Source of the DNA: a virus
Taxonomy: Duplodnaviria > Caudoviricetes
Reading direction: 5' to 3' (one strand)
Length of the DNA: 48,664 nt
Virus record (IMG/VR): IMGVR_UViG_3300033407_000891
Span: 1-48,664 of that record
Shown: one piece after another, positions 13,067 to 37,419 of the stretch
How the letters are laid out: each line of letters starts with the position of its first letter
How positions within the stretch are numbered: position 1 is the first letter of the stretch
Program-made: the position numbers and the translations under genes
Notes under the pieces: generated by a model
The model's input: only the letters and a program-made list of their open reading frames with translations
Database searches by the model: none
What the model was told of the DNA's origin: nothing

Positions 13067-13140
13067 ATTTCTATTTCTATTTCTCCTTCTTATCTCTTCT
13101 TAAATCCCGTTTCTTCTTTATCTTCCTCTTCTATTCTCCC

Positions 13141-13371: not shown

Positions 13372-13474
13372 TTTAGTTTCTCCTTATTATTCTCGAATTT
13401 ATACTTTCCTGCTTTTTTCTTTATTTTTCTAAATTATTTCTAAACCATTTTACACCCTCCTTTATCATAAACTA

Positions 13475-15403: not shown

Positions 15404-15463
15404 TATCTTCCTCTCCTTCTAACCATAAAATTTTCACATCCTAAAAAACTCAATAAAAATAAA

Positions 15464-17146: not shown

Positions 17147-19085
17147 GAAGGACTCTCCTATTCAAAATCCAATAAATTGTACATCCTATTACAAAACTCC
17201 ATCCAAAAACAAACATAACTGACATAGGAACATCAAATCCTAAAATTCTCTTAAAACTATAATTATCACTGTCCCAATAAGGATGCTCGAAATCTCCTCT
17301 GATAAATGCTGCCCAATAAGGACGCCCCTCTACTCCGTTTAACCATCCATTTTCGTACCAGCGGGAGTAATAATTTGCGTTTTCATCTTTTATATAAGAT
17401 GTAGGGTCTTGTTTCGTTATATATATTCTTTCTTCTGGTATTCCGTACTGCTCCCCTAATGTATCGTGAGGGTTGACTGTGTGGTAATGTATGTTCGGAT
17501 TGTTTTGTAGTGCTCTTAATCCTTCTTCAGCTACACAATAATAAGTTTCAAAAGGAATAAAAGAGGCATCTGGAGGCATACAGTGAGTTATATTAAATTC
17601 ACTTGTTGAATTTTTTTGTAAGAGATTTGTGTATCTCTCTGAGATATTATTGTCTTGAATTGTATAAATAGAAGGAATGACAATAACAGGTGCAATATCT
17701 GAAAAGAGAAGGGAAACCCTTCTATTATTTAATTCCCCTAAATTCATTCCTTCTATTTTTTCTACCTCTCCAATCTCCTCCAAACTTTTAACTTCTCCAT
17801 TCACTACTACAATATCATCCAAAAATCCATGATTAAAGACTTCATTCCAATAAGTCCCAATAACTTCATTGTAATATTGTGTTAATATTATCTGTTGTTC
17901 CCCTGTTTCCTCTGCAATCCCTTTTAGCTCATACAACTTATCCCTCATTTTTTCCATATCATTGTTGGGGTATAAGAAATGAATTTGGAAAAGAAGAAGA
18001 AAAGATATTATAATAAAACAACTGGATAGAGAAAACCAAATAAAACCCTTTTCTTGTACATAGGAGAATCCTTTAAAAACTAAAGGTAAGAGAATAATTG
18101 GAAGGACTGTATAATATCTGTATCCTTGGGTAGAAAGATAAGTAAGAACATAAAAGATATAAACACTTGACAAAATCCAATAAAGTTTCTCTTCCCTAAA
18201 AAACTCTTTTCCCTTAAACGCCAATCCCCAGGAAAGAATAAGAATTGGAATAGCAAAGGAAATAATAAAAATAGGAATATGGGAAAATATTCTAATAGGT
18301 AAGTCTGAATAATTTAAAAGAAATATGGGAGTTAATGCACGGAAATAGTGCAAAACCCGCTCCGCCGTATAATCAATTTGTGCATCAAAAGTTAGTCCAA
18401 AAAAGCCACGAAAAACAATAGTAGAATATATAAAAAGTCCAATTAACCCACTCCAAAAAGCCTCTTTAGGTATTCCTCTCCAAAGAGTAATATTCTCCTT
18501 GTGCCTAAAAAACATTCCTAATAAATAAGTAAGTGCAACTACAAATAAGAGGGTATGATGCGATCCTATACATAAACCTCCAAAAATAATCTGAATCCAC
18601 TTCCAACCCTTCCAATTATTCCTTCTTCCCATATCCCAACTAAAAAAGAAAACTAACAATAAAAGTGCATGGAGTGGATAGCTCTCAATAACTCCAAACT
18701 GAGAGAAGGATATAGCAGAAAGAATTAAGGTAAAGGCAGCTATAGAAGAGAAATAAACATTAAGACCGCGAACCATTGCCCAATAAAAAGCAACAGAAAC
18801 AGTCAAAAGTCCAATAAAAGTATTCATCCACAAAAGTGAATCATACACAGAAACATCAAAAATTAGAAATAAATTAGACCACAAAAAGCCCAAAAAAGTA
18901 TAAACAGTTGCTCCCCCAGGATGTGCTACCCAGAAATTAGGAATAAAAGCTAAATAAATTCCAGCATCTGATGATGTCGTGGACCAAGTATGAAAGGGAG
19001 GAGTTATTAGGCGGAGAGAGACTCCTGTAATAAGTAAAAGAAAAAGTCCAGCGGAAATATTCCGCTTGGTCATTACGTTTTCCAT
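17139..19085 (-). CDS. DUF2723/TMEM260-like GT-C glycosyltransferase (putative protein O-mannosyltransferase)
   Basis: SDAGIY...VAHPGG..VY..LG and SQFGVIESY resemble the DUF2723 D-x-G-E / AHPPGYPLY / AEVY motifs; many TMs. Confidence 0.72.
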   Translation of the reverse strand: MENVMTKRNISAGLFLLLITGVSLRLITPPFHTWSTTSSDAGIYLAFIPNFWVAHPGGATVYTFLGFLWSNLFLIFDVSVYDSLLWMNTFIGLLTVSVAFYWAMVRGLNVYFSSIAAFTLILSAISFSQFGVIESYPLHALLLLVFFFSWDMGRRNNWKGWKWIQIIFGGLCIGSHHTLLFVVALTYLLGMFFRHKENITLWRGIPKEAFWSGLIGLFIYSTIVFRGFFGLTFDAQIDYTAERVLHYFRALTPIFLLNYSDLPIRIFSHIPIFIISFAIPILILSWGLAFKGKEFFREEKLYWILSSVYIFYVLTYLSTQGYRYYTVLPIILLPLVFKGFSYVQEKGFIWFSLSSCFIIISFLLLFQIHFLYPNNDMEKMRDKLYELKGIAEETGEQQIILTQYYNEVIGTYWNEVFNHGFLDDIVVVNGEVKSLEEIGEVEKIEGMNLGELNNRRVSLLFSDIAPVIVIPSIYTIQDNNISERYTNLLQKNSTSEFNITHCMPPDASFIPFETYYCVAEEGLRALQNNPNIHYHTVNPHDTLGEQYGIPEERIYITKQDPTSYIKDENANYYSRWYENGWLNGVEGRPYWAAFIRGDFEHPYWDSDNYSFKRILGFDVPMSVMFVFGWSFVIGCTIYWILNRRVLRA

Positions 19086-19409
19086 CTAATTTCTTCCCTC
19101 CAAAATTTTAATTAGTCTTTCCTCAATCCATTTTCCTATAACTAAAGCTAAATTAAGGGCACCAATTAGATACAGAAGAGAAATTAAGGCCATAAGAAAA
19201 GTAACCCAATTCTCTCCTGCACCTGTAACTCTGATATGATGAACAAAAGGCTTTATATTGTCTTGGGCCAATGTCAAGAACGGAAAAAGAAGAATAAATA
19301 TAAAAGCAGAACTAGTCCATCTAAAATAACCTCTAATTACTCCTTCCCCCTTTCTTTTTATTCTTATCTCATTCTTTTCTTCATACTTTTGCAATTCCTG
19401 CTCTATCAT
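19086..19409 (-). CDS. Two-TM membrane protein
   Basis: Two hydrophobic helices; within the glycosylation cluster. Confidence 0.7.
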   Translation of the reverse strand: MIEQELQKYEEKNEIRIKRKGEGVIRGYFRWTSSAFIFILLFPFLTLAQDNIKPFVHHIRVTGAGENWVTFLMALISLLYLIGALNLALVIGKWIEERLIKILEGRN

Positions 19410-19744
19410 ATCTTTATATTTCCTATTAGGATATTTCCTACATAATTACTAAAAGCTGCTATACATATACCTACAAAACCTGCAATTTTATAATCTAACT
19501 CAAAAACCTCAACTAAACTTAAAAGAACACCCATATTTATTAATATTCCAATTCCACCAATAAACCAAAACTTAAAACCTTTAAGTAGAAAAGTCCTTAC
19601 TCTAAATTTTGAAAAAAATCTAAATATTAAAGCCCATACTCTAAATGCGGAAAAAAGAATGGGCTCCTCATCTAACTCTTTTAATGTTTTATAATGCATA
19701 AAACTATAAACCCTCATTAAATGGAGTTCTCTTTGAGCCTGCAT
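19406..19744 (-). CDS. GtrA-like lipid-linked sugar flippase (short)
   Basis: KFWFIGGIGILINMGVL..LVE...Y.IA......A..SNY is the GtrA N-terminal signature. Confidence 0.75.
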   Translation of the reverse strand: MQAQRELHLMRVYSFMHYKTLKELDEEPILFSAFRVWALIFRFFSKFRVRTFLLKGFKFWFIGGIGILINMGVLLSLVEVFELDYKIAGFVGICIAAFSNYVGNILIGNIKI

Positions 19745-20276
19745 TTAATTTTTCTCCTAAAGAATTCAACCTTTTTACATCATTTATGATATTAGCTTTT
19801 TCTTGTTTATACCATTTTCCATCTGTCATAGACAACTTCCAAGTATTTTCTACACCTAATATATTTACTGGATGTCCTCTTTCTCCTGCATATGAGATTA
19901 ACTCCCCTGAAGAAGGAGCAAATGCAGTTTGTTTTCCTCCATCTTCTTGAAATTTAACTTTATATTCATTTATTATATCTGCTCCAGGCCATATCTGGAG
20001 AGCCTTTTCTAATGTAAGCATATTATCCTCTACAATATAATTTCCCTCTAACAACTCTACAATCTCACGAGCAATAACATACGCTCTATCCAATTCTAAA
20101 AATAAGGGAATTTTAACTGTAACTATTCTCCATTTATGCCTTACGTGACCCCATATAATTCCTACTCCAGAAGGAACTAATTGTAATCTAGTTTTTTCAG
20201 CAGAGCCAAAAGGCTTTATCCTGAAATCGTGAGTAAGATCGGTTTTTGTATATATGAGTTCTTTGTCTGTCTGCAT
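19704..20276 (-). CDS. Hypothetical soluble protein (190 aa)
   Basis: GGGGGG RBS-like site; follows the ATPase gene. Confidence 0.75.
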   Translation of the reverse strand: MQTDKELIYTKTDLTHDFRIKPFGSAEKTRLQLVPSGVGIIWGHVRHKWRIVTVKIPLFLELDRAYVIAREIVELLEGNYIVEDNMLTLEKALQIWPGADIINEYKVKFQEDGGKQTAFAPSSGELISYAGERGHPVNILGVENTWKLSMTDGKWYKQEKANIINDVKRLNSLGEKLNAGSKRTPFNEGL

Positions 20277-20309
20277 ATTTCCCCCCTTTTCTCTTGTACC
20301 CTTATTTTT

Positions 20310-20930
20310 TTATCTTGTGAACGTAGCCTTCTTCAAATACTGGGGGATTCCAGGCTTTTCTCTAGTATTATATAGAGGGAATATTTCTTTTGCATCATAA
20401 GTTAAAGTACTCCATTCCTTATATTTTCTGTTATAAATTTTTACTCTACATAAACCTGTTTTTTCATCTAAATTTGGATGTAATTCTAAATGAATATATC
20501 TTCTAACTTTCCTATCAATATCAGTTTCTTCAGGAGAAACTAAATATAAATCTGTAGCTCCTTTTCGTATTGTAGTAGCATAGGCTACAATAATCTGATT
20601 CACTAAAGAAGCAGAACGGTTAGAACCTGCTGTCAAATAGAATTCATCAAAACCGACTGTGCAGTTATCTAACTCGTTGTCTTCCATCATCCTAAGAAAT
20701 CTTCTTAAATCTACGTTACTACGGATAGCTAAAAATTCAGGGTCTTCAACTATATACCCTAATTCCCTCATTTCTTCCTTAGAAGGAAAATCTAAATGGA
20801 AATCAGAATATATTTTCTTTCCTAACAACCAATCTTCAAATAGCATTTTAGCACAAGTTACAGTTTTGCCTTTTCCTAAATTCCCTCCTATATAAACCAT
20901 CTTTCCGCCAATAAAATCTTGCATAACCAT
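20310..20930 (-). CDS. Zot/pI-like (FtsK-HerA superfamily) morphogenesis ATPase
   Basis: Walker A GNLGKGKT, IYSD, Walker B VGFDE, IRKG..DLYLVS, Arg-finger region IDRKVR; no C-terminal TM. Confidence 0.82.
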   Translation of the reverse strand: MVMQDFIGGKMVYIGGNLGKGKTVTCAKMLFEDWLLGKKIYSDFHLDFPSKEEMRELGYIVEDPEFLAIRSNVDLRRFLRMMEDNELDNCTVGFDEFYLTAGSNRSASLVNQIIVAYATTIRKGATDLYLVSPEETDIDRKVRRYIHLELHPNLDEKTGLCRVKIYNRKYKEWSTLTYDAKEIFPLYNTREKPGIPQYLKKATFTR

Positions 20931-20964
20931 TGTTACGCTTCTCCTCTTCTCCTAATCTATTCTT

Positions 20965-21423
20965 CTATAATCTCCTATCACCCTCTTCATCCTCTTCACT
21001 ATGCAATCTAATATCTCGGAGTCCATCTAACATTTCTTTTCTACCTGCCCCTTTTTCTCCTATTCCAGGAGCTAACATATATCTTATTATTCTTTTGTGT
21101 ATATCCGTATTTGCCCTTCTATCCATAGCCAACATCTGCGCTATGGCTTCTATTTGACTAGATTTAATCCTAGATAATGATATTAAATTTAATACACTAC
21201 TTTCTGTTAACTTTCCAGGAGAGCTTTCGTCATCTGCACCATCATTAAATAATACATCAAACATAGCCGTTATTGGATGTTTAGCATCTTTTTCCTGTTG
21301 AGAAGGGACGAATCCAAGACTATTTGCTCTTCTATCTGCTATTTGTTGAGCCATACTCCTAATAGGTTTTTCTTCCTCTTCTTCCTCTTCTTCTTCTACA
21401 TCTTTATTATTTATATTTACCAT
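20965..21423 (-). CDS. Hypothetical protein with poly-Glu N-terminus
   Basis: GGAG RBS; directly upstream of the ATPase. Confidence 0.75.
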   Translation of the reverse strand: MVNINNKDVEEEEEEEEEKPIRSMAQQIADRRANSLGFVPSQQEKDAKHPITAMFDVLFNDGADDESSPGKLTESSVLNLISLSRIKSSQIEAIAQMLAMDRRANTDIHKRIIRYMLAPGIGEKGAGRKEMLDGLRDIRLHSEEDEEGDRRL

Positions 21424-21441
21424 TTTATTTCTCCCTCTATT

Positions 21442-21945
21442 TTACGCAAAAGGTTTCATGTAATGTGTAGCTGCTCCAATAGCTAGAAGAATAATTCCAG
21501 CAGATATAAAAATCATTTTTAGCAGAACTTCATTGTCAACTCCTCCAAAACCTTCTAGGAATTTCTTTATAGCTTGACTTTCTACAATCTTAGTTAATTC
21601 TTCTCCTCCAATTACTCCTGCACCTAGACCTTTATCAAAGGGTTGAGGATTAGGATTTCCTTCTAAATAATATCCAGTCTTTAACCATTCATATATTCCA
21701 GGAATAATTTGCAAAGGTGTTTCTTCTGTAGAAATTTTATAATCCCAATTATATGTAGTAACTCCTACCTTAAACGCCCCTTGGTGTAATTTTACTGCGT
21801 GGGGAAATACTTTTTTATTTTCATCTCTAATAAAAGCTCTAACTTTATCCTTAAGGGACATCTTTACATAATAATAATAGGTACCTAAAACTAAAAGAAT
21901 AACTCCTAAAGTAGCTAACGCCGTGGTTAATATTTCCACGTTCAT
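21442..21945 (-). CDS. Membrane protein with N- and C-terminal TM (putative assembly factor)
   Basis: Two terminal hydrophobic helices around a soluble domain; AGGAG RBS. Confidence 0.78.
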   Translation of the reverse strand: MNVEILTTALATLGVILLVLGTYYYYVKMSLKDKVRAFIRDENKKVFPHAVKLHQGAFKVGVTTYNWDYKISTEETPLQIIPGIYEWLKTGYYLEGNPNPQPFDKGLGAGVIGGEELTKIVESQAIKKFLEGFGGVDNEVLLKMIFISAGIILLAIGAATHYMKPFA

Positions 21946-21983
21946 TCTTTTCTCCTTCTCTATTTATTATTCCAGACCTTTTT

Positions 21984-22178
21984 CTATCTATATCTAAAAA
22001 ACCAAACTCCAAAAGCAGCAAATAATAATATTAATAAAGTCCAAAAAGGAACATCTTTAGTCCAAAAAATTAAATATAGAAATCCTAAAGCTACTCCTCC
22101 TAATCCTCCATATAAATTTTTAGTTAATCCAAAACCAAAAACCCCCATTATTCCTAGGGGAATCATTATATCAATCAT
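21984..22178 (-). CDS. Small hydrophobic membrane protein
   Basis: Almost entirely hydrophobic, Gly-rich. Confidence 0.7.
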   Translation of the reverse strand: MIDIMIPLGIMGVFGFGLTKNLYGGLGGVALGFLYLIFWTKDVPFWTLLILLFAAFGVWFFRYR

Positions 22179-22185
22179 TAGTCTT

Positions 22186-22611
22186 TTACTCTTTTATTTT
22201 ACAATTTCCTATTAGGACTTCTATATTTTCCTGTTTTGCCTCTGAATTTATAGTATTTATTCCTAACATATCAAAACCCATAACTTCCCCACTAAAAATT
22301 ATAATATCTCCTATCCGAATAGAGGCCCAATCCGAATATACACAAACAACCCCATTAGATAAAATTAGTTGGGACAATATAGGCTCTTTTCTAATTACCT
22401 CTGACCTAAAAGTTACAGTATGTCCTATTCTTAAATTTTCATCTTCGACTAGACTTTTAGCGTTTCTTATCCCGTCAATTTCTGAGTTATTTTCTCCTCC
22501 TACTATTTTTTCCCCATAAACCAAAAATCCCCCTAAAGCCATAACTCCAACCAGGAAAGCTAAAACTATAAATAGCCCCCAATTCTTATTTCTTTTCTTT
22601 GACTTATACAT
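22186..22611 (-). CDS. Membrane-anchored protein with OB-fold-like domain
   Basis: N-terminal TM; G.TV.F...V and IGD.I.F.G.V.G...I..C.I pattern. Confidence 0.65.
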   Translation of the reverse strand: MYKSKKRNKNWGLFIVLAFLVGVMALGGFLVYGEKIVGGENNSEIDGIRNAKSLVEDENLRIGHTVTFRSEVIRKEPILSQLILSNGVVCVYSDWASIRIGDIIIFSGEVMGFDMLGINTINSEAKQENIEVLIGNCKIKE

Positions 22612-22612
22612 T

Positions 22613-25117
22613 TTATTCCCCCTTCAAAAGTAATCTATCCCATGTTAGATACAAGAAAACAGCAAGTAAAATTAAAGCTAAGAAAAGATTTATAATATCT
22701 AATAATCCCATAATAATCATCATAAAATACATACATAACAATCCAAATTGTATCTTAGCAGGGGGAAATAACCCAAACATAAAAGTATAACCAAGTAAAA
22801 AGAACCCTGTAGCAAAGGAAATAAATATAATTATTCTACCCTGTATTGAATCCCAACCTATAGCTTGGATTAAATTATTTAGTTGTGTTTTGATATTATC
22901 CTCTATAGTTTCCCATGTTTCAGTGATATCATAATGAAACCCTTCACCTAAAAATGTATTCAAAACTCCCGAAGTTAATCTTAGTCTTACTATTCCATCC
23001 TCATTTGTATCAGGGTCTGTAGTATTTAATTCAATTGTTTGGGTATTTGTAAAAGTTGAAGATAAAGAAGCTGTTACTAAAGAATCTAAGTCAGTTAATA
23101 ATTTAGTAGAAAAATCAGTATACACTTTAGAAGTTTGAGAACTAACTATTACTTCAACTCTATTTCCTCTTGCAATATCGGGGATATCAAGAGTAAAAGG
23201 AGGATTATTTGATAAAATTAGAGCTTTATTTTGTGTAGTTTTTGGAGTTACTTCTGTAGGAGAATCAGATAATATAGAGAACGAATTGACTTCAAATTCA
23301 TTATCTACACCTATAATTCCCCAATCTAAAGCCTCAGCTTCGGGGTCTAAAGTAAAAGTATGAGTATCAACCAACTCCTCATCTAAGTACAAATCATATT
23401 CTGTATCCGAAACAGTTTCTACTCTTAAAGTATGAATATCTCCTTCTTGAAAATTTATTGTATCCCCTACTTTTTCTGCTTCATACGTTCCATCTTGATA
23501 AGCATAAACAAATAGACTTTTTAGTCTAGGGTCTATTACATATTGCATCCCAACCCATGTTGCTACAGAAGTTTCCTCTGTCTCCTCTTTATATCTAAAA
23601 GTTAATCCTACTAAATCTGTTCCTATTTCAAATTCAGCTTCTGCAATCACAGAATCTCCTTGTTCTGTAGTTACTATTCCTCTAAGATTTGAGGCTTCAA
23701 TCTTATTTACTAAAACGCTCTCTGTGTTTGTTGTATCTTCACTATAAGCTGCAATCCCACTAAATCCTTGAGTTATAGTTCTAATCCGTGTAGCGGAAAT
23801 TGCAAAATTACTGGGATTATCTTGTTCCTGAACAAAACACAACCATTCTTCATTTGTAGAATCTGTAGCAACATATTCTATAAGTCTGATTATATGCACT
23901 ACATCTCTAGTTATGGTATATGTAACAGTTTCAGGGCCTCCTCCCGAAGCAGTAGTAGCAGTTACTAATTCATCTGAATTAGCGTCAAGGCCACAAATAA
24001 AATCTAATCCTACATCGTCTGTGGAATCGAATCCAGGGCCAACAACCCAATTATTGTCCCCAGAAGGAATAATAACTTCCATGTAGATATTATTATAATC
24101 TTCTGTCTCAGGTACTAAAGCATTAACTATATTCCCTGAAGCTCCCGAATCATTAGAAATTTCTACATAGGGCCTAGAAATATTTATATTTATACCTGAA
24201 TCTACATTTGTACTCCAAGTTAATCCACCCGTATCCGTTGTAGAGCCATCTAAATTTCCTGTTCTATCAAAAGAGTCTGTATATAAATAAGCAGGAGTAG
24301 TTAAAGATGTAAAATCAGAATTTGCAGGAATTTCCCAATCCCCCTCTCCACTCTCAAACCAACGTAACCCAGGAAAATTAACTAAATCAGGGTCATGTGC
24401 ATCTAAAGAAACAGCAGAGCTAGTTTCATTTGTAAATGAATCAAAGAAATCACGTATCAAAACTGATTTAAAAGAAAATACTCCAGAGGAAGAAAGCTGA
24501 AGGGTACGAGAATTTATATCATCTGAAGATGTATCTAGTCCTGTAATTACAATATTCTGTAATAAACCTGTCCCATCTGCTATCCAGTCAAATGTATCTT
24601 CATTTCCTGCACCATCAGAATATTGAATTTGCCAGCCACCAGGCTGCTGAGCACATAAATATATTACAGAATATCCAGAAAGGGGAATTAAATATCTGTC
24701 TAGATTTGATGACCAATCAGTTTCAATATCTCCAATAAATAGTTGTCCCTCTCCCTCTACTCCACAATTAATATCTATAAAAGGGACAATAAAAAATATC
24801 TCCGAGACATTGCCTGAACCTAAAACAGTAATATAATAAGGATATAGGGAAGATAGGTCATTTTCTATAAAATTAAAACTAATTTCATCATTAACATCTC
24901 CTGTTAATTGTTGAGATTTTAAAACACTTTCAGTTATAGAGTTTATTGCTTGTACTGTTACTTCTTCATCCTGTGGAACATGGATAGTAAAAATAACTTC
25001 TGAACCTGCTAAGGAATTTGTTTTACTAACAGATAAAATATCTCCTGTCTCCTGAGCATAAACAGGAAAAGAAAATAATAATAAAATTAAAGGGAGGAAC
25101 CAGAAAATCCTCTTCAT
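22613..25117 (-). CDS. Large exported beta-rich virion/surface protein with C-terminal TM helices
   Basis: Signal peptide (VYA-Q), acidic S/T-rich ectodomain, YTDSFDR lectin-like start, 2-3 C-terminal TMs. Confidence 0.8.
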   Translation of the reverse strand: MKRIFWFLPLILLLFSFPVYAQETGDILSVSKTNSLAGSEVIFTIHVPQDEEVTVQAINSITESVLKSQQLTGDVNDEISFNFIENDLSSLYPYYITVLGSGNVSEIFFIVPFIDINCGVEGEGQLFIGDIETDWSSNLDRYLIPLSGYSVIYLCAQQPGGWQIQYSDGAGNEDTFDWIADGTGLLQNIVITGLDTSSDDINSRTLQLSSSGVFSFKSVLIRDFFDSFTNETSSAVSLDAHDPDLVNFPGLRWFESGEGDWEIPANSDFTSLTTPAYLYTDSFDRTGNLDGSTTDTGGLTWSTNVDSGININISRPYVEISNDSGASGNIVNALVPETEDYNNIYMEVIIPSGDNNWVVGPGFDSTDDVGLDFICGLDANSDELVTATTASGGGPETVTYTITRDVVHIIRLIEYVATDSTNEEWLCFVQEQDNPSNFAISATRIRTITQGFSGIAAYSEDTTNTESVLVNKIEASNLRGIVTTEQGDSVIAEAEFEIGTDLVGLTFRYKEETEETSVATWVGMQYVIDPRLKSLFVYAYQDGTYEAEKVGDTINFQEGDIHTLRVETVSDTEYDLYLDEELVDTHTFTLDPEAEALDWGIIGVDNEFEVNSFSILSDSPTEVTPKTTQNKALILSNNPPFTLDIPDIARGNRVEVIVSSQTSKVYTDFSTKLLTDLDSLVTASLSSTFTNTQTIELNTTDPDTNEDGIVRLRLTSGVLNTFLGEGFHYDITETWETIEDNIKTQLNNLIQAIGWDSIQGRIIIFISFATGFFLLGYTFMFGLFPPAKIQFGLLCMYFMMIIMGLLDIINLFLALILLAVFLYLTWDRLLLKGE

Positions 25118-25495
25118 TTATCGCCTCACAAATTCAATAGCTCTAATACCAAAGAATAAGACTACAGGAAAAAATATTCCAATTCTAACCAACTCTGGAA
25201 TTTCAGGATTAGTTGCTAATCCAACTAATATAATTAATGGGGGGAGAAATAAAGAACCCACTACTGCATTAGAGAATGTAAATCCAGAAGCAAAACCAAA
25301 ACCAGGTAAAACAGCAGAAGCTATAATAGTTGCTACAGTAGCCAAAAATCCAAATAAAAGAAAAGTTTCTACACTACCAAAAAGTGAAGGAACAACCCCC
25401 AAATCTGGACCTACACCTAAATTAGTCAAAGTAAAGTGTAGTATGGCTAAATATATATACATAAAAACGACTGTAGGGGCAAATGCACTAGTCAT
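25118..25495 (-). CDS. Multi-TM hydrophobic protein (putative virion membrane protein)
   Basis: About four hydrophobic helices. Confidence 0.78.
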   Translation of the reverse strand: MTSAFAPTVVFMYIYLAILHFTLTNLGVGPDLGVVPSLFGSVETFLLFGFLATVATIIASAVLPGFGFASGFTFSNAVVGSLFLPPLIILVGLATNPEIPELVRIGIFFPVVLFFGIRAIEFVRR

Positions 25496-25543
25496 TATTT
25501 TTCTCTTGTTAGTTTTCTATAGGTTTGTTTTTGGGTTCTAGCC

Positions 25544-27061
25544 CTATTCTGCTTCTCGTGGTTTTATAATTTTTGTTATTCTTAAAATAATAAATACTGT
25601 TACTAACCCTACAGGAATTAATAGAAGCCACCAATCATAATACTCATAAATTACACCTACAAAAACCCCTATCAAAACAAATCCTAACATTAAATGTACA
25701 GTTCTTGTTGCTGCATATAAAACTAACCCAATAATTCCTATAATTCCTGTAGCAAATACATCTTTAGGAAGAAGAAATAAAGAAGCTATGAAGTCAGCAC
25801 CAGATTTTAAATCTTCAGAAATTACTGTTTCAGGAAAAATAGTTTGCATAAAAGTTATTTCGTCAAGGGATAAAACTCTATCCCATAGACGCATTTCATC
25901 TAATACACCTTCAAAATTCTCTCCCATAACTAAATCATTTGTATTTGTTGTTAAACTTTCAGTCCCTCCCGAAATAGCATCGTCACAAACAGGAATAGCT
26001 GCACCAAATAACCCCCTACAAAAAATTACATCTCCTGTTGTTCCATCTCTTGTTACTGTATATAGAGCAGTTACTCCCTCTTGATCTTCAATTAAACTTG
26101 ATTGGAATGGAGTATTTGTAACTCCTGGGAGATTTAATTCTATATTTTCTAAAGAGGTGGCCTTAATAGCCTGGAAGCCATCCACAAAAGCTACTACACT
26201 TTGCCCTGCTGTAGTTGAATCAGTATCAATTTCAATTCTAAGTGTTGCTGTACTAGAAGGCGATGTAGCTGTTCGGGTAACTTGTACCCATCCAGAAGTT
26301 ACCCCCGTAAGAGAGTCAGTTAGAACCTGTAATTGATTCCCTCCACTATCCCTCCACCTAATACGCAATCGGACAGTATTTATATCAAAATCTATAATGT
26401 TTATCCAAACTCCGACACTCCATATTTCTCCTTCCGACGCTGAAATATCCTGACGTATAAAGCTGATACCTGCTGCGGAAGTATCGCTGATATTAATCTT
26501 AGCGGACGCTTCACCGAATTTTGATTCTTCCTCGGACCTTGTAATTGTCCCTGTATGATTGCCGCTAACCGTAGCTGTCCAATCATCTAATGCAGGAGAA
26601 TCCTCTTCAAATGAGGAATTTAATACTTCATTTTCAACTGTTCTTAATTCATATGCTCCATCTTTTACAAATAAATTTTGTGTTCCTTCATAAAATTCTA
26701 CTGCATCAGGATTCATCCAAAAAGAAAGAGATAAATCAGAATCCAAATCCAAAGAATCAGAATCCGAAACAGTTAAATCCGCAGAACCATCAAAATAATA
26801 TGCAGTATTTGCTGGCCCAGGAGTAGGAGTTGCACCTTGTACTAAAGCATTATTTTCATTATTTGCTTCAGCAGTATCGGGTGTAACAGTTCCACTAGTG
26901 GGAGTTTCTGCAATATCTACACTTCCAGGAAATTCAGTATCAAAAGACCAATAAGATACTAAATCTTCTTGCAGGTCGATAACTGCAAAAGAAATAGTGA
27001 AAACAAAAACAGAGAGAACAGCAAAAATTATAATTAATTTTTTACTTAAGCGAGAGAGCAT
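25544..27061 (-). CDS. LamG/ConA-like jelly-roll protein with inserted CBM-like domain and C-terminal TMs
   Basis: LVSYWSFD, YFDG, LSFWMNP, FEGVLDEMRLWDRVLS (LamG); LNSSFEE...W...QDI...FVDG (CBM4/9-like). Confidence 0.82.
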   Translation of the reverse strand: MLSRLSKKLIIIFAVLSVFVFTISFAVIDLQEDLVSYWSFDTEFPGSVDIAETPTSGTVTPDTAEANNENNALVQGATPTPGPANTAYYFDGSADLTVSDSDSLDLDSDLSLSFWMNPDAVEFYEGTQNLFVKDGAYELRTVENEVLNSSFEEDSPALDDWTATVSGNHTGTITRSEEESKFGEASAKINISDTSAAGISFIRQDISASEGEIWSVGVWINIIDFDINTVRLRIRWRDSGGNQLQVLTDSLTGVTSGWVQVTRTATSPSSTATLRIEIDTDSTTAGQSVVAFVDGFQAIKATSLENIELNLPGVTNTPFQSSLIEDQEGVTALYTVTRDGTTGDVIFCRGLFGAAIPVCDDAISGGTESLTTNTNDLVMGENFEGVLDEMRLWDRVLSLDEITFMQTIFPETVISEDLKSGADFIASLFLLPKDVFATGIIGIIGLVLYAATRTVHLMLGFVLIGVFVGVIYEYYDWWLLLIPVGLVTVFIILRITKIIKPREAE

Positions 27062-29579
27062 ATTTGCTCGTTCCCCATTGAATTACCGCAGTATTCCCAT
27101 CAGGACTTAAAGCTCTAACATAAGGGCCTTTGACACTTTTGGACTTTCCATAATTTATAAATCCCGCCGCAAAACTCCTAAATTGATTTTCTGTAATCCT
27201 TTTTGTTATTTTAGGAGTTTCTTCTTCGGACAAAAAAGGTGCTCTTAAAGGTGCAGGAGGAACAGGGGTAATACCTCCTCTTAATACTCCTGGAGTCCTT
27301 AAAGTTTCCGTTGCTGTTTGTGTTAATCTTGGAGTTGTAAACGGAGTTGTAGTTTCTGTTTGAGTTTCTATTTGCGCTTGAGTTTGAATTTGTGTTTCTT
27401 CTAGGGGTTGTACTTGAGTTATTTCTCTTGGTCTTGTTTGTAATTCTGTCTCTGTAACAGGTTTAGTTTCAACTTTAGTAATAGGAGCAAGTTTAGGAAT
27501 AGTTTCTATTCTAGTTTCCATAAAAATTTCAGGATTTGCTACTAATTGTTGAAGAGTTTTTACATTAGTGTTTAATTGTGGGAGGGAAGCAACATCTAAT
27601 TGCCTTGCAATTTCTCTTTGCTCTTGTATAATTCCCTGTCTTTGAGTTAAATTCTCTGTTCCTGCTAAGACTCCCTCTAAAACTAAAATTCTATTTACAA
27701 TATTAGCCTGTTCCTGTAATTGAGGAGAGAGTTGAGGAGTAGCTCTTTGTAAAGAATCTAAATAATTTCTTATTTCTGTATCTCTAGATTCCCTAGCAGT
27801 CCTACCAGGAATTGTAGACCTTAAGGAGACTCGGGATTTTATTGTTCCTATCCTACCTATTCGAGTAGATTTAGCTAAAACATTCTGTAATTGTCCCCTT
27901 AATATTCCAGAAATAGGAGCTATTTTTCCTAAATCAACATAGCCAGCTTGAGACCTTAAAGCTATAGGAGCAGTCCTTTTTACATAATCAATAATTCTAG
28001 GTGCTACATATCTAAGTCCCCGAATTAGTAGGGACGATGCAGCAAAAGAAACAGGAATACTAGCAATAGATATTCCAGCAGAAATTAAGTGTTGTTTTCT
28101 TTGTTCATCAAATATCATAGCAACTTCAGGTCTATCTTTATTTTCCTGAAGCCACTTATATTCAGCTACAGATATCCAATATCTTTCAGGTAATTCAAAA
28201 CCTGAACCTACAACAGAAAGTTGTAAATCTAATTTTTGGGCTATATCTACAGCTTTATTTATATTTTCAGCAATGGCCCTAGATTCTATGTCCTGGGCAA
28301 TAACGTCTGAAGGGCTAGGAGGAGGAACATTCGGATTTATTTCAAATCCAACAGTCACAAGCCCCGTTTCTTTATCCTCAAAAAGAGGATATTGGGAAGG
28401 GTCAATATTCCATTTCTCAATTAATTCTCTAGTTTCAGGGGTAAATTGAGCTAAATATTTTTGTCTATAATGCTCCTGTAATCCCTCTAGACCACTCTCC
28501 TCTAAAATCTGCTTTTCCTCTTGTCCTAAATCCTCATACCAACTCTTTAATTCTTCTATATCCTTTTGTTCAAATCCTATATTTATTAACTCAGCTTCAT
28601 TAGTACCTTTTCTTATTTCTTCTAATAAATCATATTCTCTTGTCTCTGTTATTTCTTGTTCTTGTTTTTGTTCAGGTACTATTTCCTGCTCTTCTTGTTC
28701 AGTTACAAGTATATTTAATTCTCGTTCGTAACTTCTCTCCCAATTTTCAATACTTCTATTTAACTGTAAAGCCTGTCTATTAAACTCTCTAGGAGAAAGT
28801 GTATCCCTTTGCTCTTCTAATTCTTGAACTCTTTCTATTAATCTTTCTCTATTAGTCTCAAAATCTCTAAGTCTAGCAGATATTCTATCTAATTCTTCCC
28901 CTTGTTGCTCTTCTTTTTCTTCCTCGGTATCTTTTATTTCTTGGTCTTTTTCTGATATTTCTTCTATTTTTTCTTCTTTATCCCTTTTTTCCTGTAGTTC
29001 TATCTGTCTCCTTGCTGCTTCTATTGCTATAATTTCTTGTGGACTCGGGATTCTTACTGATTTTTCCTCTTCTTCTTCCTGCTCTTGTTGTATTGTCTCT
29101 TCCTCCTGTTTTATAGCTTCCATTTTTTGTATAGAATTTTCTGGTTGTGTGTGGATAGCATCTGAATTATTTTGATTTTCACTTATTGGATTTTCGGATT
29201 CAACTCTAGCACTTATTCTCTCTCCCTCTACACTATCCCCATCCCTTTCAGGAGTATTAGGAGTACCATTAGGAGAATTGTCGGAGTTAGAAATATCGCT
29301 ATTATCAGAGGAAGGAGGATCAATATCCTCCAAAATATTTGGATTTGGATTTGGACTTGACTGGTCATTATAGTTATTTAAAACCTCTCTCTCACTATCA
29401 TCCAATTCTTGTTTATTTATTTCACCATTTCTCTCTAGCCTTTGCAATAAAGCTCCAGCTTCAGACTCCCTACCTTGAGATATTAAATCAGAGACTTGCT
29501 CTCTATAAGAATAAGTCTCTGGCTTGTATTCTTTTGGTTCTGTAGAATTAACTTTTATGGGAGTAATATTGACAGCCAT
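27042..29579 (-). CDS. Large acidic coiled-coil protein with one central TM
   Basis: E/Q-rich coiled coil, hydrophobic segment LISAGISIASIPVSFAASSLLI, T/Q/P-rich tail. Confidence 0.78.
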   Translation of the reverse strand: MAVNITPIKVNSTEPKEYKPETYSYREQVSDLISQGRESEAGALLQRLERNGEINKQELDDSEREVLNNYNDQSSPNPNPNILEDIDPPSSDNSDISNSDNSPNGTPNTPERDGDSVEGERISARVESENPISENQNNSDAIHTQPENSIQKMEAIKQEEETIQQEQEEEEEKSVRIPSPQEIIAIEAARRQIELQEKRDKEEKIEEISEKDQEIKDTEEEKEEQQGEELDRISARLRDFETNRERLIERVQELEEQRDTLSPREFNRQALQLNRSIENWERSYERELNILVTEQEEQEIVPEQKQEQEITETREYDLLEEIRKGTNEAELINIGFEQKDIEELKSWYEDLGQEEKQILEESGLEGLQEHYRQKYLAQFTPETRELIEKWNIDPSQYPLFEDKETGLVTVGFEINPNVPPPSPSDVIAQDIESRAIAENINKAVDIAQKLDLQLSVVGSGFELPERYWISVAEYKWLQENKDRPEVAMIFDEQRKQHLISAGISIASIPVSFAASSLLIRGLRYVAPRIIDYVKRTAPIALRSQAGYVDLGKIAPISGILRGQLQNVLAKSTRIGRIGTIKSRVSLRSTIPGRTARESRDTEIRNYLDSLQRATPQLSPQLQEQANIVNRILVLEGVLAGTENLTQRQGIIQEQREIARQLDVASLPQLNTNVKTLQQLVANPEIFMETRIETIPKLAPITKVETKPVTETELQTRPREITQVQPLEETQIQTQAQIETQTETTTPFTTPRLTQTATETLRTPGVLRGGITPVPPAPLRAPFLSEEETPKITKRITENQFRSFAAGFINYGKSKSVKGPYVRALSPDGNTAVIQWGTSKYALSLK

Positions 29580-29642
29580 AATAAGGACATCCTAAAACAA
29601 ATCAAAATATTAAAAAGATTGCTAAAAAATAAGAAAAAAAAT

Positions 29643-29795
29643 CTACTCGTACCTACTAATTTCTGAAACTGCTTTATCTAGTGCATCTCTCTTAGAAACT
29701 TTTTGGTTCTTATAAATAGAATTAGCAGAGTTAAGAATTCTTCTCCAAATATCTTCTTTAGGATTTTTTCTGCGATCTTGTTTTCTAGTAGTCAT
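29643..29795 (-). CDS. Small basic protein after the capsid-like pair (50 aa); not in ORF track
   Basis: MTTRKQDRRKNPKEDIWRRILNSANSIYKNQKVSKRDALDKAVSEISRYE. Confidence 0.55.
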   Translation of the reverse strand: MTTRKQDRRKNPKEDIWRRILNSANSIYKNQKVSKRDALDKAVSEISRYE

Positions 29796-29859
29796 TGTTT
29801 TTTTTTCATTTCATAGTCTGGTTTTTTAACCGCCAGACCTTTTTCGGATAAATTTGAAT

Positions 29860-30060
29860 TTACCCTCTACTAGAAAAAGCTCCAGAAGCTAATCTCCACA
29901 GTAACACAGCCGCCAAAATGACGGCCATAACCGAGAAAATAGCCGTAACGCCATTAGCGCCTGTAACCGCTGCAAACTGCGTGATAATAGTAGGGAATAA
30001 TGCAGAAGCAACAACAGCCACTAACAAAACACCAATAACCCAGTTACCGATTTTGTCCAT
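29860..30060 (-). CDS. Putative major capsid protein paralog 2 (two-helix hydrophobic, spindle-virus VP1/VP3-like)
   Basis: Two hydrophobic helices joined by FPTIITQFAAVTGANG; basic C-terminus; strong GGAGGT RBS. Confidence 0.72.
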   Translation of the reverse strand: MDKIGNWVIGVLLVAVVASALFPTIITQFAAVTGANGVTAIFSVMAVILAAVLLWRLASGAFSSRG

Positions 30061-30087
30061 TATTTTTAACCTCCCTTCTACAAAAAA

Positions 30088-30294
30088 TTACTTACTACGA
30101 CCAAATGCACCACCTGCAATCTTCCATAGAAAGACAGCAGCTAAAACTACCGCCATAACAGAGAAGATTGCCGTAATACCATTAGCTCCTGTAACTGCCG
30201 CAAATTGAGTTACAATTGTTGGGAATAATGCACCCCCAATAACTGCAATCAATAAAAGAGCAATTACCCAGGTAGCCACAGAATTTCCTTTCAC
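30088..30294 (-). CDS. Putative major capsid protein paralog 1 (two-helix hydrophobic, spindle-virus VP1/VP3-like)
   Basis: Closely similar to 29860-30060 (LFPTIVTQFAAVTGANGITAIFSVMAV); GGAGGTGA RBS, GTG start. Confidence 0.72.
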   Translation of the reverse strand: MKGNSVATWVIALLLIAVIGGALFPTIVTQFAAVTGANGITAIFSVMAVVLAAVFLWKIAGGAFGRSK

Positions 30295-30354
30295 AAGATT
30301 TCACCTCCCTTCTTTCAAAATTTTGTTTTATCCACCTTTATGATTTCCTTTCCT

Positions 30355-31443
30355 CTAATCCCTAACTACCTCATATATTCCGTACCTCCCATTTCCAATA
30401 CTTGCACTTACAAATAAAGAATCTTCAATAAAAAATAAATGAGTCAAATAAGAGAGTTTATTCTCTAAAATAAGTTCCGGTATACTCTCTAAATTATACT
30501 TCCAAATTCTCCCACTACAAAAATCCCCAAAATAGATACTTCCATCTTTTTCCCCAATTCCTTCTTTATAAGGTCCACCTATTATTGCACAGTTACCTTT
30601 ATCGTAGATTGGATAAAAGTAATTAGGAGGAGTATAATTTTGAAGTTCAGGCTCAAAACCTAAAAATCCTTCTACACCCGTAAATTCAGCACTAAACTCA
30701 TTCCCCTCATAGTAGGGCCAACCATAATTTCCTAATTCTTCATCTAAATCAATTATATTGATTTCTTCCCAACTAGTTTGGCCTGTATCAAAAACAACTA
30801 ACTTTTTTCCAATTTTCTCAAATCTCCAAGGATGCCGAAAACCATAACCTAAAATATCTACCGAACCAGAAACCAAATCAATCCTTGAAACTGTACCCCT
30901 ATAATTACTGTTATCTTGTGCCCAGGTACAATCTTCTAATCCTAAAGTACAAAAATATCCATCCCCAAAACTAGCAAAAAGTATGTCATTATCTAAAATT
31001 AACCCTCCGCCTGCATGAACATCCCCATCACGCTCTACCCTTAAAATATACTCTTCACTCTCAACATCCCAAAAATCAAAATAACTTACTGTTACAGATC
31101 CCCCAACTTCCGTATAGGATAAGAAAAACCCCTTTGCATCCTCTGTAACCTCTACACTTTGTAACCCATTTTCGTGATGATATTCCGGCTCTTCTATTTT
31201 ATTTCTAAGGTCAAAAACTAGTTCTCCATCTTCTTTCCAAATATATCCTTGCTTCTCAACAAAATACAATTCTTCATCTAAAGTAAAAGTGTCAACAATC
31301 TCCGTATCAAAAACTAAATTTTCAAATGCTAAAGCTACTTCCCAATTCTCATTAGCTTTATTCCAATAGTCTATTTCTTCTTCAGCCTCAATAGGTGTAC
31401 AACCAAAAAATAATAAAGATATAAAAATTAAATATCTAAACAC
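30355..31443 (-). CDS. PQQ-dependent glucose/sorbosone dehydrogenase-like beta-propeller lipoprotein
   Basis: Lipobox-like LFFGC; ENGL, HAGG, FGDG, GFRHPWR, WEEIN, NYGWPYYEG, YFGDFCSGRIW motifs. Confidence 0.85.
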   Translation of the reverse strand: MFRYLIFISLLFFGCTPIEAEEEIDYWNKANENWEVALAFENLVFDTEIVDTFTLDEELYFVEKQGYIWKEDGELVFDLRNKIEEPEYHHENGLQSVEVTEDAKGFFLSYTEVGGSVTVSYFDFWDVESEEYILRVERDGDVHAGGGLILDNDILFASFGDGYFCTLGLEDCTWAQDNSNYRGTVSRIDLVSGSVDILGYGFRHPWRFEKIGKKLVVFDTGQTSWEEINIIDLDEELGNYGWPYYEGNEFSAEFTGVEGFLGFEPELQNYTPPNYFYPIYDKGNCAIIGGPYKEGIGEKDGSIYFGDFCSGRIWKYNLESIPELILENKLSYLTHLFFIEDSLFVSASIGNGRYGIYEVVRD

Positions 31444-31461
31444 TTAGACTCCCTCATGACT

Positions 31462-31490
31462 AGTTTACCTTATCCCGTCCTGATTGTCAA
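31462..31490 (-). promoter_or_regulatory. sigma70-type promoter upstream of the lipoprotein/capsid/morphogenesis operon
   Basis: TTGACA-17bp-TAAACT. Confidence 0.75.
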
Positions 31491-31560
31491 TACCCTCCGA
31501 AAAAGTCTATACCCTTTTTCTCCAATAACCGTTCATACTATCTATCTTTGATTCTAATTT

Positions 31561-31794
31561 CTATCCCTCCTTATTCCTCCATTCCTTAATAGCATTAAAT
31601 CCAGGAAGTAAAAATCCAAATCCAGGGAAAAGACAAGACAAGCCAAAAATAGGAAAATCAGAAATTACTATAAAAACTGTAGCCAACCAAACTACTCCTG
31701 CTGCAAAGGAGAACAAAATTCCTACAGTTTCATTTCTAAGAAAAACTGCTAAACCTGTAAAAGCTCCTACGATTATAGCTAAACCTAAATCCAT
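31561..31794 (-). CDS. Small three-TM protein
   Basis: Hydrophobic; resembles the C-terminal TM block of 31921-33630. Confidence 0.72.
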   Translation of the reverse strand: MDLGLAIIVGAFTGLAVFLRNETVGILFSFAAGVVWLATVFIVISDFPIFGLSCLFPGFGFLLPGFNAIKEWRNKEG

Positions 31795-31920
31795 TTTTTT
31801 CTTCCCCTTTATCCTTCTTATCAGTTTTTTTTATTGTTATTTATTTTTTAGTTTCACTTTTTTATTCCTATCCCCTATCCCTAATCTCCTCATATCTTTT
31901 ATTCCTAATTTCTCCATTTT

Positions 31921-33630
31921 CTATTCCTGATTTCTCCATCTTCTAACTCGTCTGTATGCCCAAGGTAGTATAAATGCGAAAGCTATAGCTACTGACGCTA
32001 AAGAGTAAACAAAATTAATATCCGTTTCTATTCCTAGACCAAAAATTACACTTATACCGAACCATTTAGATGCTGCTCCCCATTTAAATAAATCGTCTCC
32101 AGCCCAATCTAATCTTAATCCGGCCAATATAGAAGAAAATATAGTCAATAGAAATAATCCTACTAAAGGAGATATTTCTGTAGGCTCACCTCCGCCACCA
32201 CCTATAGGTGTAGCTGTAGGTGTAGGAGTTGGAGTATTTGTCGGAGTTGCAGTAGGTGTAGGCGTAGGTGTAGGGTCTAAACCATCTGAAGCCATAAAAT
32301 TATCTGAGGATGTAGCAGAACCTCTTAAAGTAAGTCCAGTATACAAATTACCAGAAATAGAACTATCTGTAATCTGTATTTTTTGTACGTCTTCATAGAA
32401 ATAAGTTAGTGTAGTACCTTCTATATCAAATTTAGCTTCTCCTGGAAAAGTAGGAGCAGGGCTTTCATTAGCTCCTGTAAGCTCACTCCTAGTCCCAGTA
32501 ACAAATTTTTCAAATCTATGTGAAACAGAAGTATTCGGTCTACTCCAAGCCGAATATAAAGTAATATCTGATTCGTGAATTCTTACTCCAGGACCATTAA
32601 CTAAAGAAGAAGCTCCCATACTTACAATATCGACTTGGGAAAAATGGTCTGCACTAGATAAAGCCTCTTCAGCCCTAGCAACTGTATCCACACCCGCAGA
32701 AACACCCACGACTATATTACTAGAAATATTTATTGAAGCAACTAATACACTCCATGTCCATCCTTGTCCCACAGAGTCTATTGTAGCTTCTGAATTATTT
32801 AAAGAACCATCTCCTCTATTAAAATCATCTTGGATTGTAGTTTTAGGCTCTACTGAAACTATACCATCATCTCTAAACTCTTCAGGTTTAAAACTTTCAT
32901 AATTACCAATATTATATTTATCGCTCTGTAAGCTTAACCACATCCCTAACTTTTCATTTGTTAGAGACTCTCTTAATTCTCTATAATCTTCCTGTATCCC
33001 TTTTACAATATATTGCCACTCCTCAGAAACTTCAGGTACTATTATCTTTTCCTTTATTGCTCGTCCATCCACTGAAATTCCGTATAAATATAATCTTAAG
33101 CCTAAATCTCTCTCAGGAATTATAGGTTTAGGTCCAGTTAACCCAGTAGAATCTGAATGAACAGTAAAAATTTCCCATAACATATCTTCAAAAGTAGAAG
33201 AAAAAGGGGAAAAAGAATCTACAAAATCTAATTTAGTTATCAACACATCCTTTATATCAGGATTTACAAATCCTCCTTGAAAAATTAACTCTAAATCTAA
33301 ACCTAAATCAGAACTCAGTATAGGTCTATCATAAACAAAAACCCCACAACAAATAGAGTCTCCTTCAAATCTTCCCTTTTGTCCCATATCAGTAATGGAA
33401 CGCAAATCCAAAATACCTAAAACTGAATCAAAAATGGGAGCAGCCCAATAACCCTCAGAATCCCCTTCGTCAATATACCACTCCCAAGAACCTACATAAA
33501 CATAATTGTTCAAATATGAATTATTTGGAGAAGCATAGGCATAAATGAAAAAACTAATAACTAGAGAAAATAAAACTCCAACAAAACCAAGGAGTAATAA
33601 AAATCTTTTCAACTTCAATTTTTCTTCCAC
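31921..33630 (-). CDS. Exported protein with lectin-like domain, Pro/Thr linker and C-terminal TMs
   Basis: N-terminal hydrophobic signal, IQDDFNR...SDNF ConA-like domain, PTPTPTPTATPTNTPTPTPTATP linker, 3 TMs. Confidence 0.8.
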   Translation of the reverse strand: MEEKLKLKRFLLLLGFVGVLFSLVISFFIYAYASPNNSYLNNYVYVGSWEWYIDEGDSEGYWAAPIFDSVLGILDLRSITDMGQKGRFEGDSICCGVFVYDRPILSSDLGLDLELIFQGGFVNPDIKDVLITKLDFVDSFSPFSSTFEDMLWEIFTVHSDSTGLTGPKPIIPERDLGLRLYLYGISVDGRAIKEKIIVPEVSEEWQYIVKGIQEDYRELRESLTNEKLGMWLSLQSDKYNIGNYESFKPEEFRDDGIVSVEPKTTIQDDFNRGDGSLNNSEATIDSVGQGWTWSVLVASINISSNIVVGVSAGVDTVARAEEALSSADHFSQVDIVSMGASSLVNGPGVRIHESDITLYSAWSRPNTSVSHRFEKFVTGTRSELTGANESPAPTFPGEAKFDIEGTTLTYFYEDVQKIQITDSSISGNLYTGLTLRGSATSSDNFMASDGLDPTPTPTPTATPTNTPTPTPTATPIGGGGGEPTEISPLVGLFLLTIFSSILAGLRLDWAGDDLFKWGAASKWFGISVIFGLGIETDINFVYSLASVAIAFAFILPWAYRRVRRWRNQE

Positions 33631-33641
33631 CTAAATTCTCC

Positions 33642-34037: not shown

Positions 34038-34054
34038 AAAAAACCTCCTAAAAA

Positions 34055-36700: not shown

Positions 36701-36701
36701 T

Positions 36702-37408: not shown

Positions 37409-37419
37409 AATAAAAACTC

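Follow-up and report, generated by a model that had tools for sequence, protein, structure and literature searches.

Spindle-shaped viruses have been treated as specific to archaea (PMC10848311, accessible text), and the available part of a further account lists only archaeal hosts (PMC10848233). Among bacteria, a preprint describes, in its accessible part, SSV1-VP1-like proteins together with a pI-like ATPase in IME1 of Dehalococcoides and Dehalogenimonas, proposes filaments and leaves the morphology open (bioRxiv 10.64898/2026.09.15.751708). Here we analyze a single virus contig of 48,664 nt and 34% GC (IMG/VR record IMGVR_UViG_3300033407_000891, over its whole length), referred to below as the window, in which two tandem genes for small hydrophobic proteins lie upstream of a gene for a pI/Zot-like ATPase. 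We consider it probable that this is a bacterial virus whose particle is likely built from two hairpin coat proteins, the ATPase being predicted to drive DNA into particles that would bud from the membrane without lysis. The initial annotation had regarded such a virion module as archaea-specific, which, given IME1, needs a qualifier.

With IME1, as set out in the accessible text of the preprint, the window has in common a bacterial host (probable for the window), a lack of tailed-virus hallmarks, a pI-like ATPase, small transmembrane (TM) proteins matching phrog_11172 and anchored adhesion proteins; the pairing of a pI-like ATPase with SSV1-VP1-like small TM proteins is found in the window at family level, compared by description only. 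However, IME1 is described there as 21-28 kb (23 +/- 2 kb among its defining criteria), with a tyrosine recombinase, a primase-helicase, tRNA integration and an ATPase gene followed downstream by the small TM genes, whereas the window measures 48.7 kb (its relatives reach 110 kb and more), has no integrase that we could find, encodes PolA, a PolB-like protein, NrdJ and tRNAs, and has some 9 kb between its coat genes and the ATPase gene downstream. His1 (Halspiviridae, NC_007914) resembles the window in a two-helix coat homologue (gp21), an ATPase (gp16) and a family-B polymerase, and likewise has a glycosyltransferase and genes for anchored ectodomain proteins, but its genome is linear, 14.5 kb long and bounded by terminal repeats of a kind not found in the window, its host is a haloarchaeon, and it has neither annotated PolA or NrdJ nor an excess of sigma70 sites. 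Fuselloviridae (SSV1, SSV19) are alike in a VP1 matched by the coat profile, two coat paralogues and a weak B251-like ATPase match; their circular form, size of about 15 kb, integrase and archaeal box-A promoters are all missing from the window. Itzamnaviridae and Tepeuviridae of ANME-1, compared by description only, share large genomes, a predicted spindle shape, structural and enzymatic arms and, in Itzamnaviridae, two coat genes, but have archaeal hosts, circular genomes (Itzamnaviridae) and an RNA-primed PolB according to the accessible text of PMC9894754. Inoviridae share the pI/Zot-family ATPase, small hydrophobic proteins and the lack of a detected lysin, but have single-stranded DNA genomes of about 4-11 kb in the accessible text of bioRxiv 10.64898/2026.09.15.751708, against 49 kb, own polymerases and an SSV/His1-homologous coat in the window. 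The window virus falls outside all spindle-shaped families described so far, outside IME1 and outside Inoviridae, but in a bacterial host it likely works in the manner of a budding, spindle-shaped virus. In a literature search that left most subscription papers outside, no account of a larger, PolA-encoding family was found besides the IME1 preprint. The finding is partly anticipated: the pairing of coat and ATPase is already in print for IME1, and the window virus differs in its larger genome, own polymerases and lack of a detected integrase.

The two candidate coat genes (Table 1) are 73% alike over 190 nt and share the ribosome-binding site (RBS) GAAGGGAGGT. In a Pfam search the only family matched by the 66-aa protein was His1_capsid, with an expectation (E) value of 0.012, below the cut-off. 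The wider family was reached through loci of ATPase relatives with similar tandem small genes, which gave a seven-sequence profile; this retrieved 201 metagenomic proteins, of which the best 120 were used. A profile of 116 of these, built without one seed, either window protein or the relative 79% identical to them, scored 21.4 bits with the 66-aa and 17.4 bits with the 68-aa protein, the next window open reading frame (ORF) reaching 6.0, and none of 1000 shuffles (global or local) of either protein equaled the real score. By hhalign, window coat and family were matched at 93% (E 3e-7). When the PDB was searched with a 107-sequence family profile, VP1 in 7XDI was the sole match at E<=10 (E 2.4e-4), and it was also the best match of the seven-sequence profile (E 0.0027). 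This chain is SSV19's major capsid protein, a hydrophobic hairpin shared with the rod-shaped APBV1 (PMC9351363, accessible text). His1_capsid was matched by 43 of the 107 family members at E<=0.1 (best 6.8e-5), and phrog_11172, which holds SSV1 VP1, by three relatives of the window coat. Among the ORFs of His1, SSV1 and SMV1, His1 gp21 ranked top with all three coat profiles, and it was still found (E 0.004) with a profile of only the two window proteins and the 79%-identical relative; gp21 is named the His1 capsid protein in the accessible text of PMC9246712. No pilin family was among the 14 Pfam families listed for the 107 members, and profile, PHROG and Pfam scans gave no match to an inovirus coat family. 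From these profile comparisons, the small proteins very probably share a distant homology with the capsid proteins of the His1/SSV type, through a link that is transitive and weak.

An AlphaFold2 model of the 66-aa protein is a helix-loop-helix (residues 3-32 and 37-60, pLDDT 81). Four fold searches did not discriminate: Foldseek gave no match in the PDB and a BFVD fold search none at E<=0.001. A single-sequence PDB search gave chance matches only. The other two, by VIA-align, returned generic hairpins, with no spindle-virus capsid among the 50 matches shown, an absence that is not evidence. As leads only, ESM Atlas gave feature matches to viral clusters (0.91-0.95), in some of which His1_capsid accounts for 11-12% of members, and structure matches that included one Methanobacteriota and one Chloroflexota cluster. 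Several observations weigh against the homology. Both window proteins lie beneath the Pfam His1_capsid cut-off (16 vs. 27 bits) and share only some 20-30% identity with the wider family. SSV1 VP3 scored 3.6 bits with the coat profile, SSV1 VP1 was not singled out by name, and hhalign against a two-sequence alignment of His1 and SSV1 VP3 gave 4.5% for the window and 12% for the family. The early proline of helix 2, common in the family though not known to be required, and present in 102 of 116 relatives, His1 gp21 and SSV1 VP3, is absent from both window proteins, and neither contains an N-glycosylation sequon.

The 206-aa ATPase itself has no Pfam family match. It is matched at E<=0.001 by 88 representatives, and 54 of the 68 that were aligned match Zot (PF05707). 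The resulting profile matches 2r2a (3e-15), His1 gp16 (7e-9) and SSV1 B251 (0.005), which supports a pI/Zot-like assignment. In a tree built from 95 rows with a quick method the window ATPase sits on a long, weakly placed branch, and a pattern scan of genome-collection contigs found no such ATPase. A second, diverged pI-like copy outside the usual place was seen in four related loci (L008 11945-12508; L054 440-1018; L063 1029-1538; L065 55-630). Downstream of the coat genes, ten same-strand ORFs follow (845, 505, 125, 834, 141, 64, 167, 152, 206, and 190 aa), seven with predicted TM segments. The initial annotation, made from the letters of the window, had described two tandem two-helix hydrophobic genes with strong RBSs near the start of an operon of TM-anchored ectodomain proteins with a Zot/pI-like ATPase, and had likened the small proteins to spindle-virus capsids. 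The gene descriptions hold, and so does the likeness, at the distance given above; the position near the operon start is refined, as a dehydrogenase-like gene precedes the coat genes and holds the nearest promoter.

We found no terminase, HK97 capsid, portal, lysin or integrase among 59 window ORFs (Pfam, PHROGs) or 29 ORFs (NCBIfam). A six-frame search with two families only, PF03237 (Terminase_6N) and PF05065 (Phage_capsid), was empty in the window and in four large relatives, and control genomes gave matches. These relatives were reached only through alignments, since direct searches of viral contigs with the window coat or ATPase returned none; plasmid and phage collections yielded no coat or ATPase relative. 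The four IMG/VR records G001-G004 (L024, L030, L034, L016) measure 110, 88, 54, and 88 kb, and two are rated at least 90% complete. All four carry the ATPase, UDG-PolA and glycosylation or membrane-transferase genes; three have a coat gene, the 54-kb record stopping inside the module, and three have DNA_pol_B_2, the fourth having a gene homologous to the PolB-like one of the window. A metagenome scan with the conserved coat subfamily gave 129 confirmed stretches, of which 80 were kept, on contigs up to 119 kb. Within this group the window is a divergent member; of its genes only those for coat, ATPase, replication and three ectodomain proteins can be aligned. All four relatives also encode QueC, and G004 GTP cyclohydrolase I as well, suggesting 7-deazaguanine DNA modification; the window has neither.

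Archaeal RNA polymerase does not use sigma70 promoters. A strict scan for TTGACA-17-TATAAT (at least 11 of 12 positions, 17-nt spacer) gave seven sites in the window against 0.67 +/- 0.84 in 100 shuffles, with a perfect -35 box in all seven. Every site is intergenic and 30-159 nt ahead of a same-strand ORF, a count reached post hoc, once two ORFs had been added at the left end and the last ORF had been given a later start; six of the seven lay outside genes in the first gene list. The archaeal controls were at chance (His1 0 vs. 0.2, SSV1 0 vs. 0.2, SMV1 1 vs. 0.9), and a loose scan of the window was not significant (83 vs. 72 +/- 9). AAGGAG precedes 13 of 65 window genes (0.5 expected) and GGTGA one of 65; this RBS pattern is a weaker host test because AGGAG also precedes 6 of 40 SMV1 and 4 of 22 SSV1 genes. 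Upstream of the coat genes of relatives, 74 of 81 loci were scoreable and 62 remained after duplicate removal; 8 of the 62 had a sigma70 site of at least 11/12 on the coding strand (0.5 in shuffles), 3 of them perfect, against 3 with a BRE-TATA pattern (1.7). The seven positioned promoters indirectly indicate a bacterial host, and together with the RBS pattern they make this assignment highly probable. In the window the promoter nearest the coat genes, a 10/12 site, belongs to the dehydrogenase-like gene and would drive the coat genes too. The bacterial signals in the initial annotation were borne out by this excess and, for LuxR and UDG-PolA, by Pfam; its further claim, that HK97 capsid, terminase, portal and lysin genes are unrecognizable, agrees with the searches above. 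Of the three findings that it named as refuting its reading, two were looked for and did not turn up: terminase or HK97 genes, and pilin or inovirus-coat matches. As to the phylum, Chloroflexota is a guess, slightly short of an even chance, drawn from the IME1 parallel and the one ESM Atlas structure match. Budding would fit a host that is monoderm or lacks a wall. Separately, the 8-mer GGGTATAG occurs nine times on either strand (1.2 expected), at 31, 122, 153, 1250, 12366, 31507, 45691, 45712, and 47935, where three copies form a cluster at the left end and five lie a short way upstream of sigma70 promoters; it is a candidate viral regulator site or origin.

The window likely represents most or all of the virus genome. 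A second assembly with an identical coat protein is 48,863 nt long, and related promoters at both record ends point outward, which fits a near-complete linear genome without proving it. The termini, which may be unassembled, carry no end repeats and no terminal direct repeat, and CheckV rates completeness at 27%; taken together, these two weigh against our interpretation, since they leave room for missing genes. Words of 27000-36700 are shared by seven soil-metagenome runs from five studies, among which no RNA data are listed and one run may be the source. Four of the runs were aligned to 28700-48664, and short difference-free pieces, coat genes included (e.g., 504 nt over 30068-30571), came from those of two studies other than that of the possible source; no contig of the compared runs covers both coat genes and polymerase, nor the whole of 28700-48664. 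An inverted repeat of 12 bp, seen in the sequence at the very left end (19-99), could form a terminal hairpin.

In the reading that we favor, host RNA polymerase would transcribe the genome, and the viral PolA, the divergent protein-primed PolB and NrdJ would serve to copy it, probably in linear form. The coat hairpins would gather in the host membrane and form a multi-start helical shell, after SSV19 VP1 (PMC9351363, accessible text). The soluble ATPase may dock on the small membrane proteins encoded just ahead of its gene and drive DNA into the particles, a role modeled on pI as given in the accessible text of the IME1 preprint (bioRxiv 10.64898/2026.09.15.751708), and particles would bud from the membrane without lysis. 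Anchored LamG/CBM ectodomain proteins could form the attachment end and receive their glycans from the virus's own set of GT2, GtrA and GT-C-like proteins. Within this scheme, a spindle is somewhat favored over a rod or filament. A model reportedly put forward by Wang et al. 2022 is the source of the genome-size argument, by which a genome of at least 49 kb shifts the odds from a thin rod toward a spindle. A bacterial virus with this coat family could instead form rods or filaments, as proposed for IME1, helix 1 perhaps being a signal peptide whose cleavage would leave a 46-aa inovirus-like coat. The pI/Zot-like ATPase suits this, and so do two traits of helix 1: it ends in a small-residue motif, possibly a signal-peptidase site, and it differs more than the remainder between the window paralogues; the rod of APBV1 is made from the same hairpin fold (PMC9351363, accessible text), and abundant filaments are reported, not linked to the genome, in the accessible part of bioRxiv 10.64898/2026.09.15.751708. 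Yet helix 1 is among the best-conserved parts of the family, begins at Met1, lacking a basic n-region in most members, and aligns to a modeled helix of 7XDI VP1, and neither the lack of inovirus coat matches nor a 49-kb genome with own polymerases fits, so that a rod or filament appears unlikely.

Some evidence runs contrary to a bacterial host, and part of it would favor an ordinary archaeal spindle-shaped virus, e.g., of Bathyarchaeia, with acquired bacterial genes. In the coat-upstream survey the reverse strand also gave 4 sites of at least 11/12, and 17 vs. 22 at 10 or more; a genome-wide sigma70 excess is clear in only one of the four relatives (G004, 10 vs. 1.0; G002, 4 vs. 0.75; G001 and G003 near chance). 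In the genome collection the conserved coat family had a single match, on a 15.4-kb contig of a Bathyarchaeia metagenome-assembled genome (MAG); this contig has no sigma70 site of at least 11/12. Named NrdJ matches mix Archaeoglobi (Geoglobus, Ferroglobus) and bacteria at 42-45%, leaving the domain undecided. Nor did NrdJ, the 560-aa membrane protein or the dehydrogenase-like protein give a usable host signal. To this may be added the resemblance of the PolB-like gene to that of His1, the large archaeal spindle viruses, reaching 72.6 kb, described in the accessible text of PMC9894754, and one UDG-PolA phage record, a tailed virus (L122, BK063670.1), that lists a Methanomicrobiales host. That record has UDG-PolA, groS and AAGGAG ahead of 20 of 46 genes, and its host label may be wrong. 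The MAG contig, however, has ORFs that read only as virus-like or virion module, a sigma70 site of 11/12 is present in its nearest relative (L093), and the 401 genomes of the Bathyarchaeia class hold one close coat-family match and two weak others; the all-viral content and the lone close match make misbinning likely, without proof. In one further genome of this class, a 77-aa two-helix protein (L118 372-605, G226; E 5e-5 on the coat profile) is possibly a true archaeal spindle-virus coat. As the seven positioned promoters contrast with chance levels in three archaeal spindle viruses, and large archaeal spindle viruses use RNA-primed PolB rather than PolA (PMC9894754, accessible text), we hold an archaeal virus to be quite improbable. 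Still less credence is given to a fragment of a tailed phage or conjugative element whose hairpins are accessory membrane proteins or pilins. The CheckV estimate, replication genes typical of tailed phages and the commonness of the helical hairpin as a fold (the R388 conjugative pilin came at rank 25 in one fold search, Z 5.3, among unrelated ties) speak for it; but the 54-110 kb relatives, the two most complete included, also lack Terminase_6N and Phage_capsid, their large ORFs showed no head, portal or conjugation families (Pfam, 114 proteins; PHROGs, 56) and tail-fiber-like repeats in two relatives only, the other assembly of the same genome is merely 199 nt longer, and no pilin family appeared for the 107 coat-family members.

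Table 1. Features of the window, in order of position.
Feature	Position	Strand	Basis
Seven sigma70 promoters	584-, 989-, 12355-, 45662-, 47907-, 48063+, 48379+ (within 556..48407)	both	at least 11/12
Divergent family-B polymerase, protein-primed type, motif B degenerate	8584..10395	-	phrog_11768 E 9e-5
642-aa N-terminally anchored ectodomain protein, candidate spike	13475..15403	-	TM scan; putative role
GtrA-like gene, 107-aa gene, two multi-TM proteins (648, 560 aa)	15464..19744	-	GtrA PF04138 E 2e-7
pI/Zot-like P-loop ATPase, candidate packaging/extrusion motor	20310..20930	-	206 aa, Walker A/B motifs, without TM anchor
64-aa 2-TM, 167-aa 2-TM, 152-aa acidic genes ahead of ATPase; candidate motor membrane partners	20965..22178	-	positional
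125-aa 4-TM, 834-aa membrane-anchored ectodomain, 141-aa 1-TM genes; candidate minor virion proteins	22186..25495	-	TM scan
505-aa membrane-anchored ectodomain protein	25544..27061	-	LamG PF13385 E 3.5e-8, carbohydrate-binding module (CBM) PF02018 E 0.002, TM scan
845-aa acidic, low-complexity protein	27042..29579	-	no family match
Candidate major coat protein 2, paralogue	29860..30060	-	66 aa, two hydrophobic segments
Candidate major coat protein 1 (His1/SSV VP1-like)	30088..30294	-	68 aa, GTG start, two hydrophobic helices
Glucose/sorbosone-dehydrogenase-like protein, directly upstream of coat genes	30355..31443	-	PF07995 E 1e-7
Sigma70-type promoter TTGACA-17-TAAACT, nearest upstream of coat genes	31462..31490	-	10/12; GGGTATAGAC motif upstream
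569-aa membrane-anchored ectodomain protein	31921..33630	-	common to G004, 27% over 427 aa, E 4e-20
UDG-PolA fusion polymerase, bacteriophage type	34055..36700	-	PF00476, PF03167
Type 2 glycosyltransferase (GT2), NrdJ, LuxR-type regulator	38472..42235	-	Pfam, NCBIfam
tRNA-Leu(UAA), Gln(UUG), Arg(UCU), Lys(UUU)	42257..43131	-	tRNA scan

Among the other membrane and ectodomain genes, the 845-aa protein may, from its position, have an internal or DNA-delivery role; a gene of 759-970 aa also comes next after the coat genes in the relatives L006 and G004. The 505-aa LamG/CBM protein is a candidate receptor-binding protein, and the sole weak PHROG match to a tail protein (E 0.002) falls on its CBM part. 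Weak matches within the same module link the 834-aa protein to a G004 protein (E 1e-4) and the 141-aa protein to one of G002 (E 8e-5). The 64-, 167-, and 152-aa genes had no sequence match in relatives, several of which have a similar order of TM, small soluble and ATPase genes. For the 648- and 560-aa multi-TM ORFs no family match was obtained; at their position relatives have TMEM260-like and Wzy_C genes, and the two are putative GT-C-type glycosyltransferases. The 642-aa protein had no significant family match in Pfam, PHROGs or NCBIfam.

The PolB-like gene, an addition to the initial annotation, encodes a protein 24% identical over 289 aa to the His1 polymerase (E 5e-5) and 30% to its G004 counterpart, with no match in the phage collection. 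Matches of PolA were mostly bacteriophages, the best of these at 22-27%. Polymerases of two different families thus occur together in all five genomes, the PolB-like ones with degenerate motifs. A short copy of the start of the PolB-like gene lies at 10857-10919, and the small basic genes at 10403-10585 and 11107-11319 are duplicates, 88% alike over 140 nt. Family scans further revealed an SNF2 helicase, dCTP deaminase, Cas4-like nuclease, Sak4 and MazG, and an Rfam scan of the window matched only tRNAs. The tRNA-Gln has U1-A72, a bacterial GatCAB determinant. Each of the four tRNAs reads the codon that the virus uses most for its amino acid (Leu TTA 51%, Gln CAA 68%, Arg AGA 58%, Lys AAA 67%), a match that may indicate a more GC-rich host.

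Beyond this one genome, the chances are evenly balanced that the window belongs to a widespread family, so far undescribed, of free-replicating phages with large genomes (49 to >100 kb), true lemon-shaped budding virions, His1/SSV-type coats, a replication arm of PolA and protein-primed PolB and their own glycosylation, in which case the spindle morphotype would not be archaea-specific. With the IME1 preprint the question can be tested in culture, and probes for host linkage can be drawn from the conserved coat family. If the reading is true, a His1-like coat would be an unsafe marker of an archaeal host in metagenomes, and a new non-lytic type of phage would have been overlooked by hallmark-based virus finders. 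A bacterial lineage with a spindle coat would then mean that the morphotype predates the domain split or that the whole virion module was transferred across domains.

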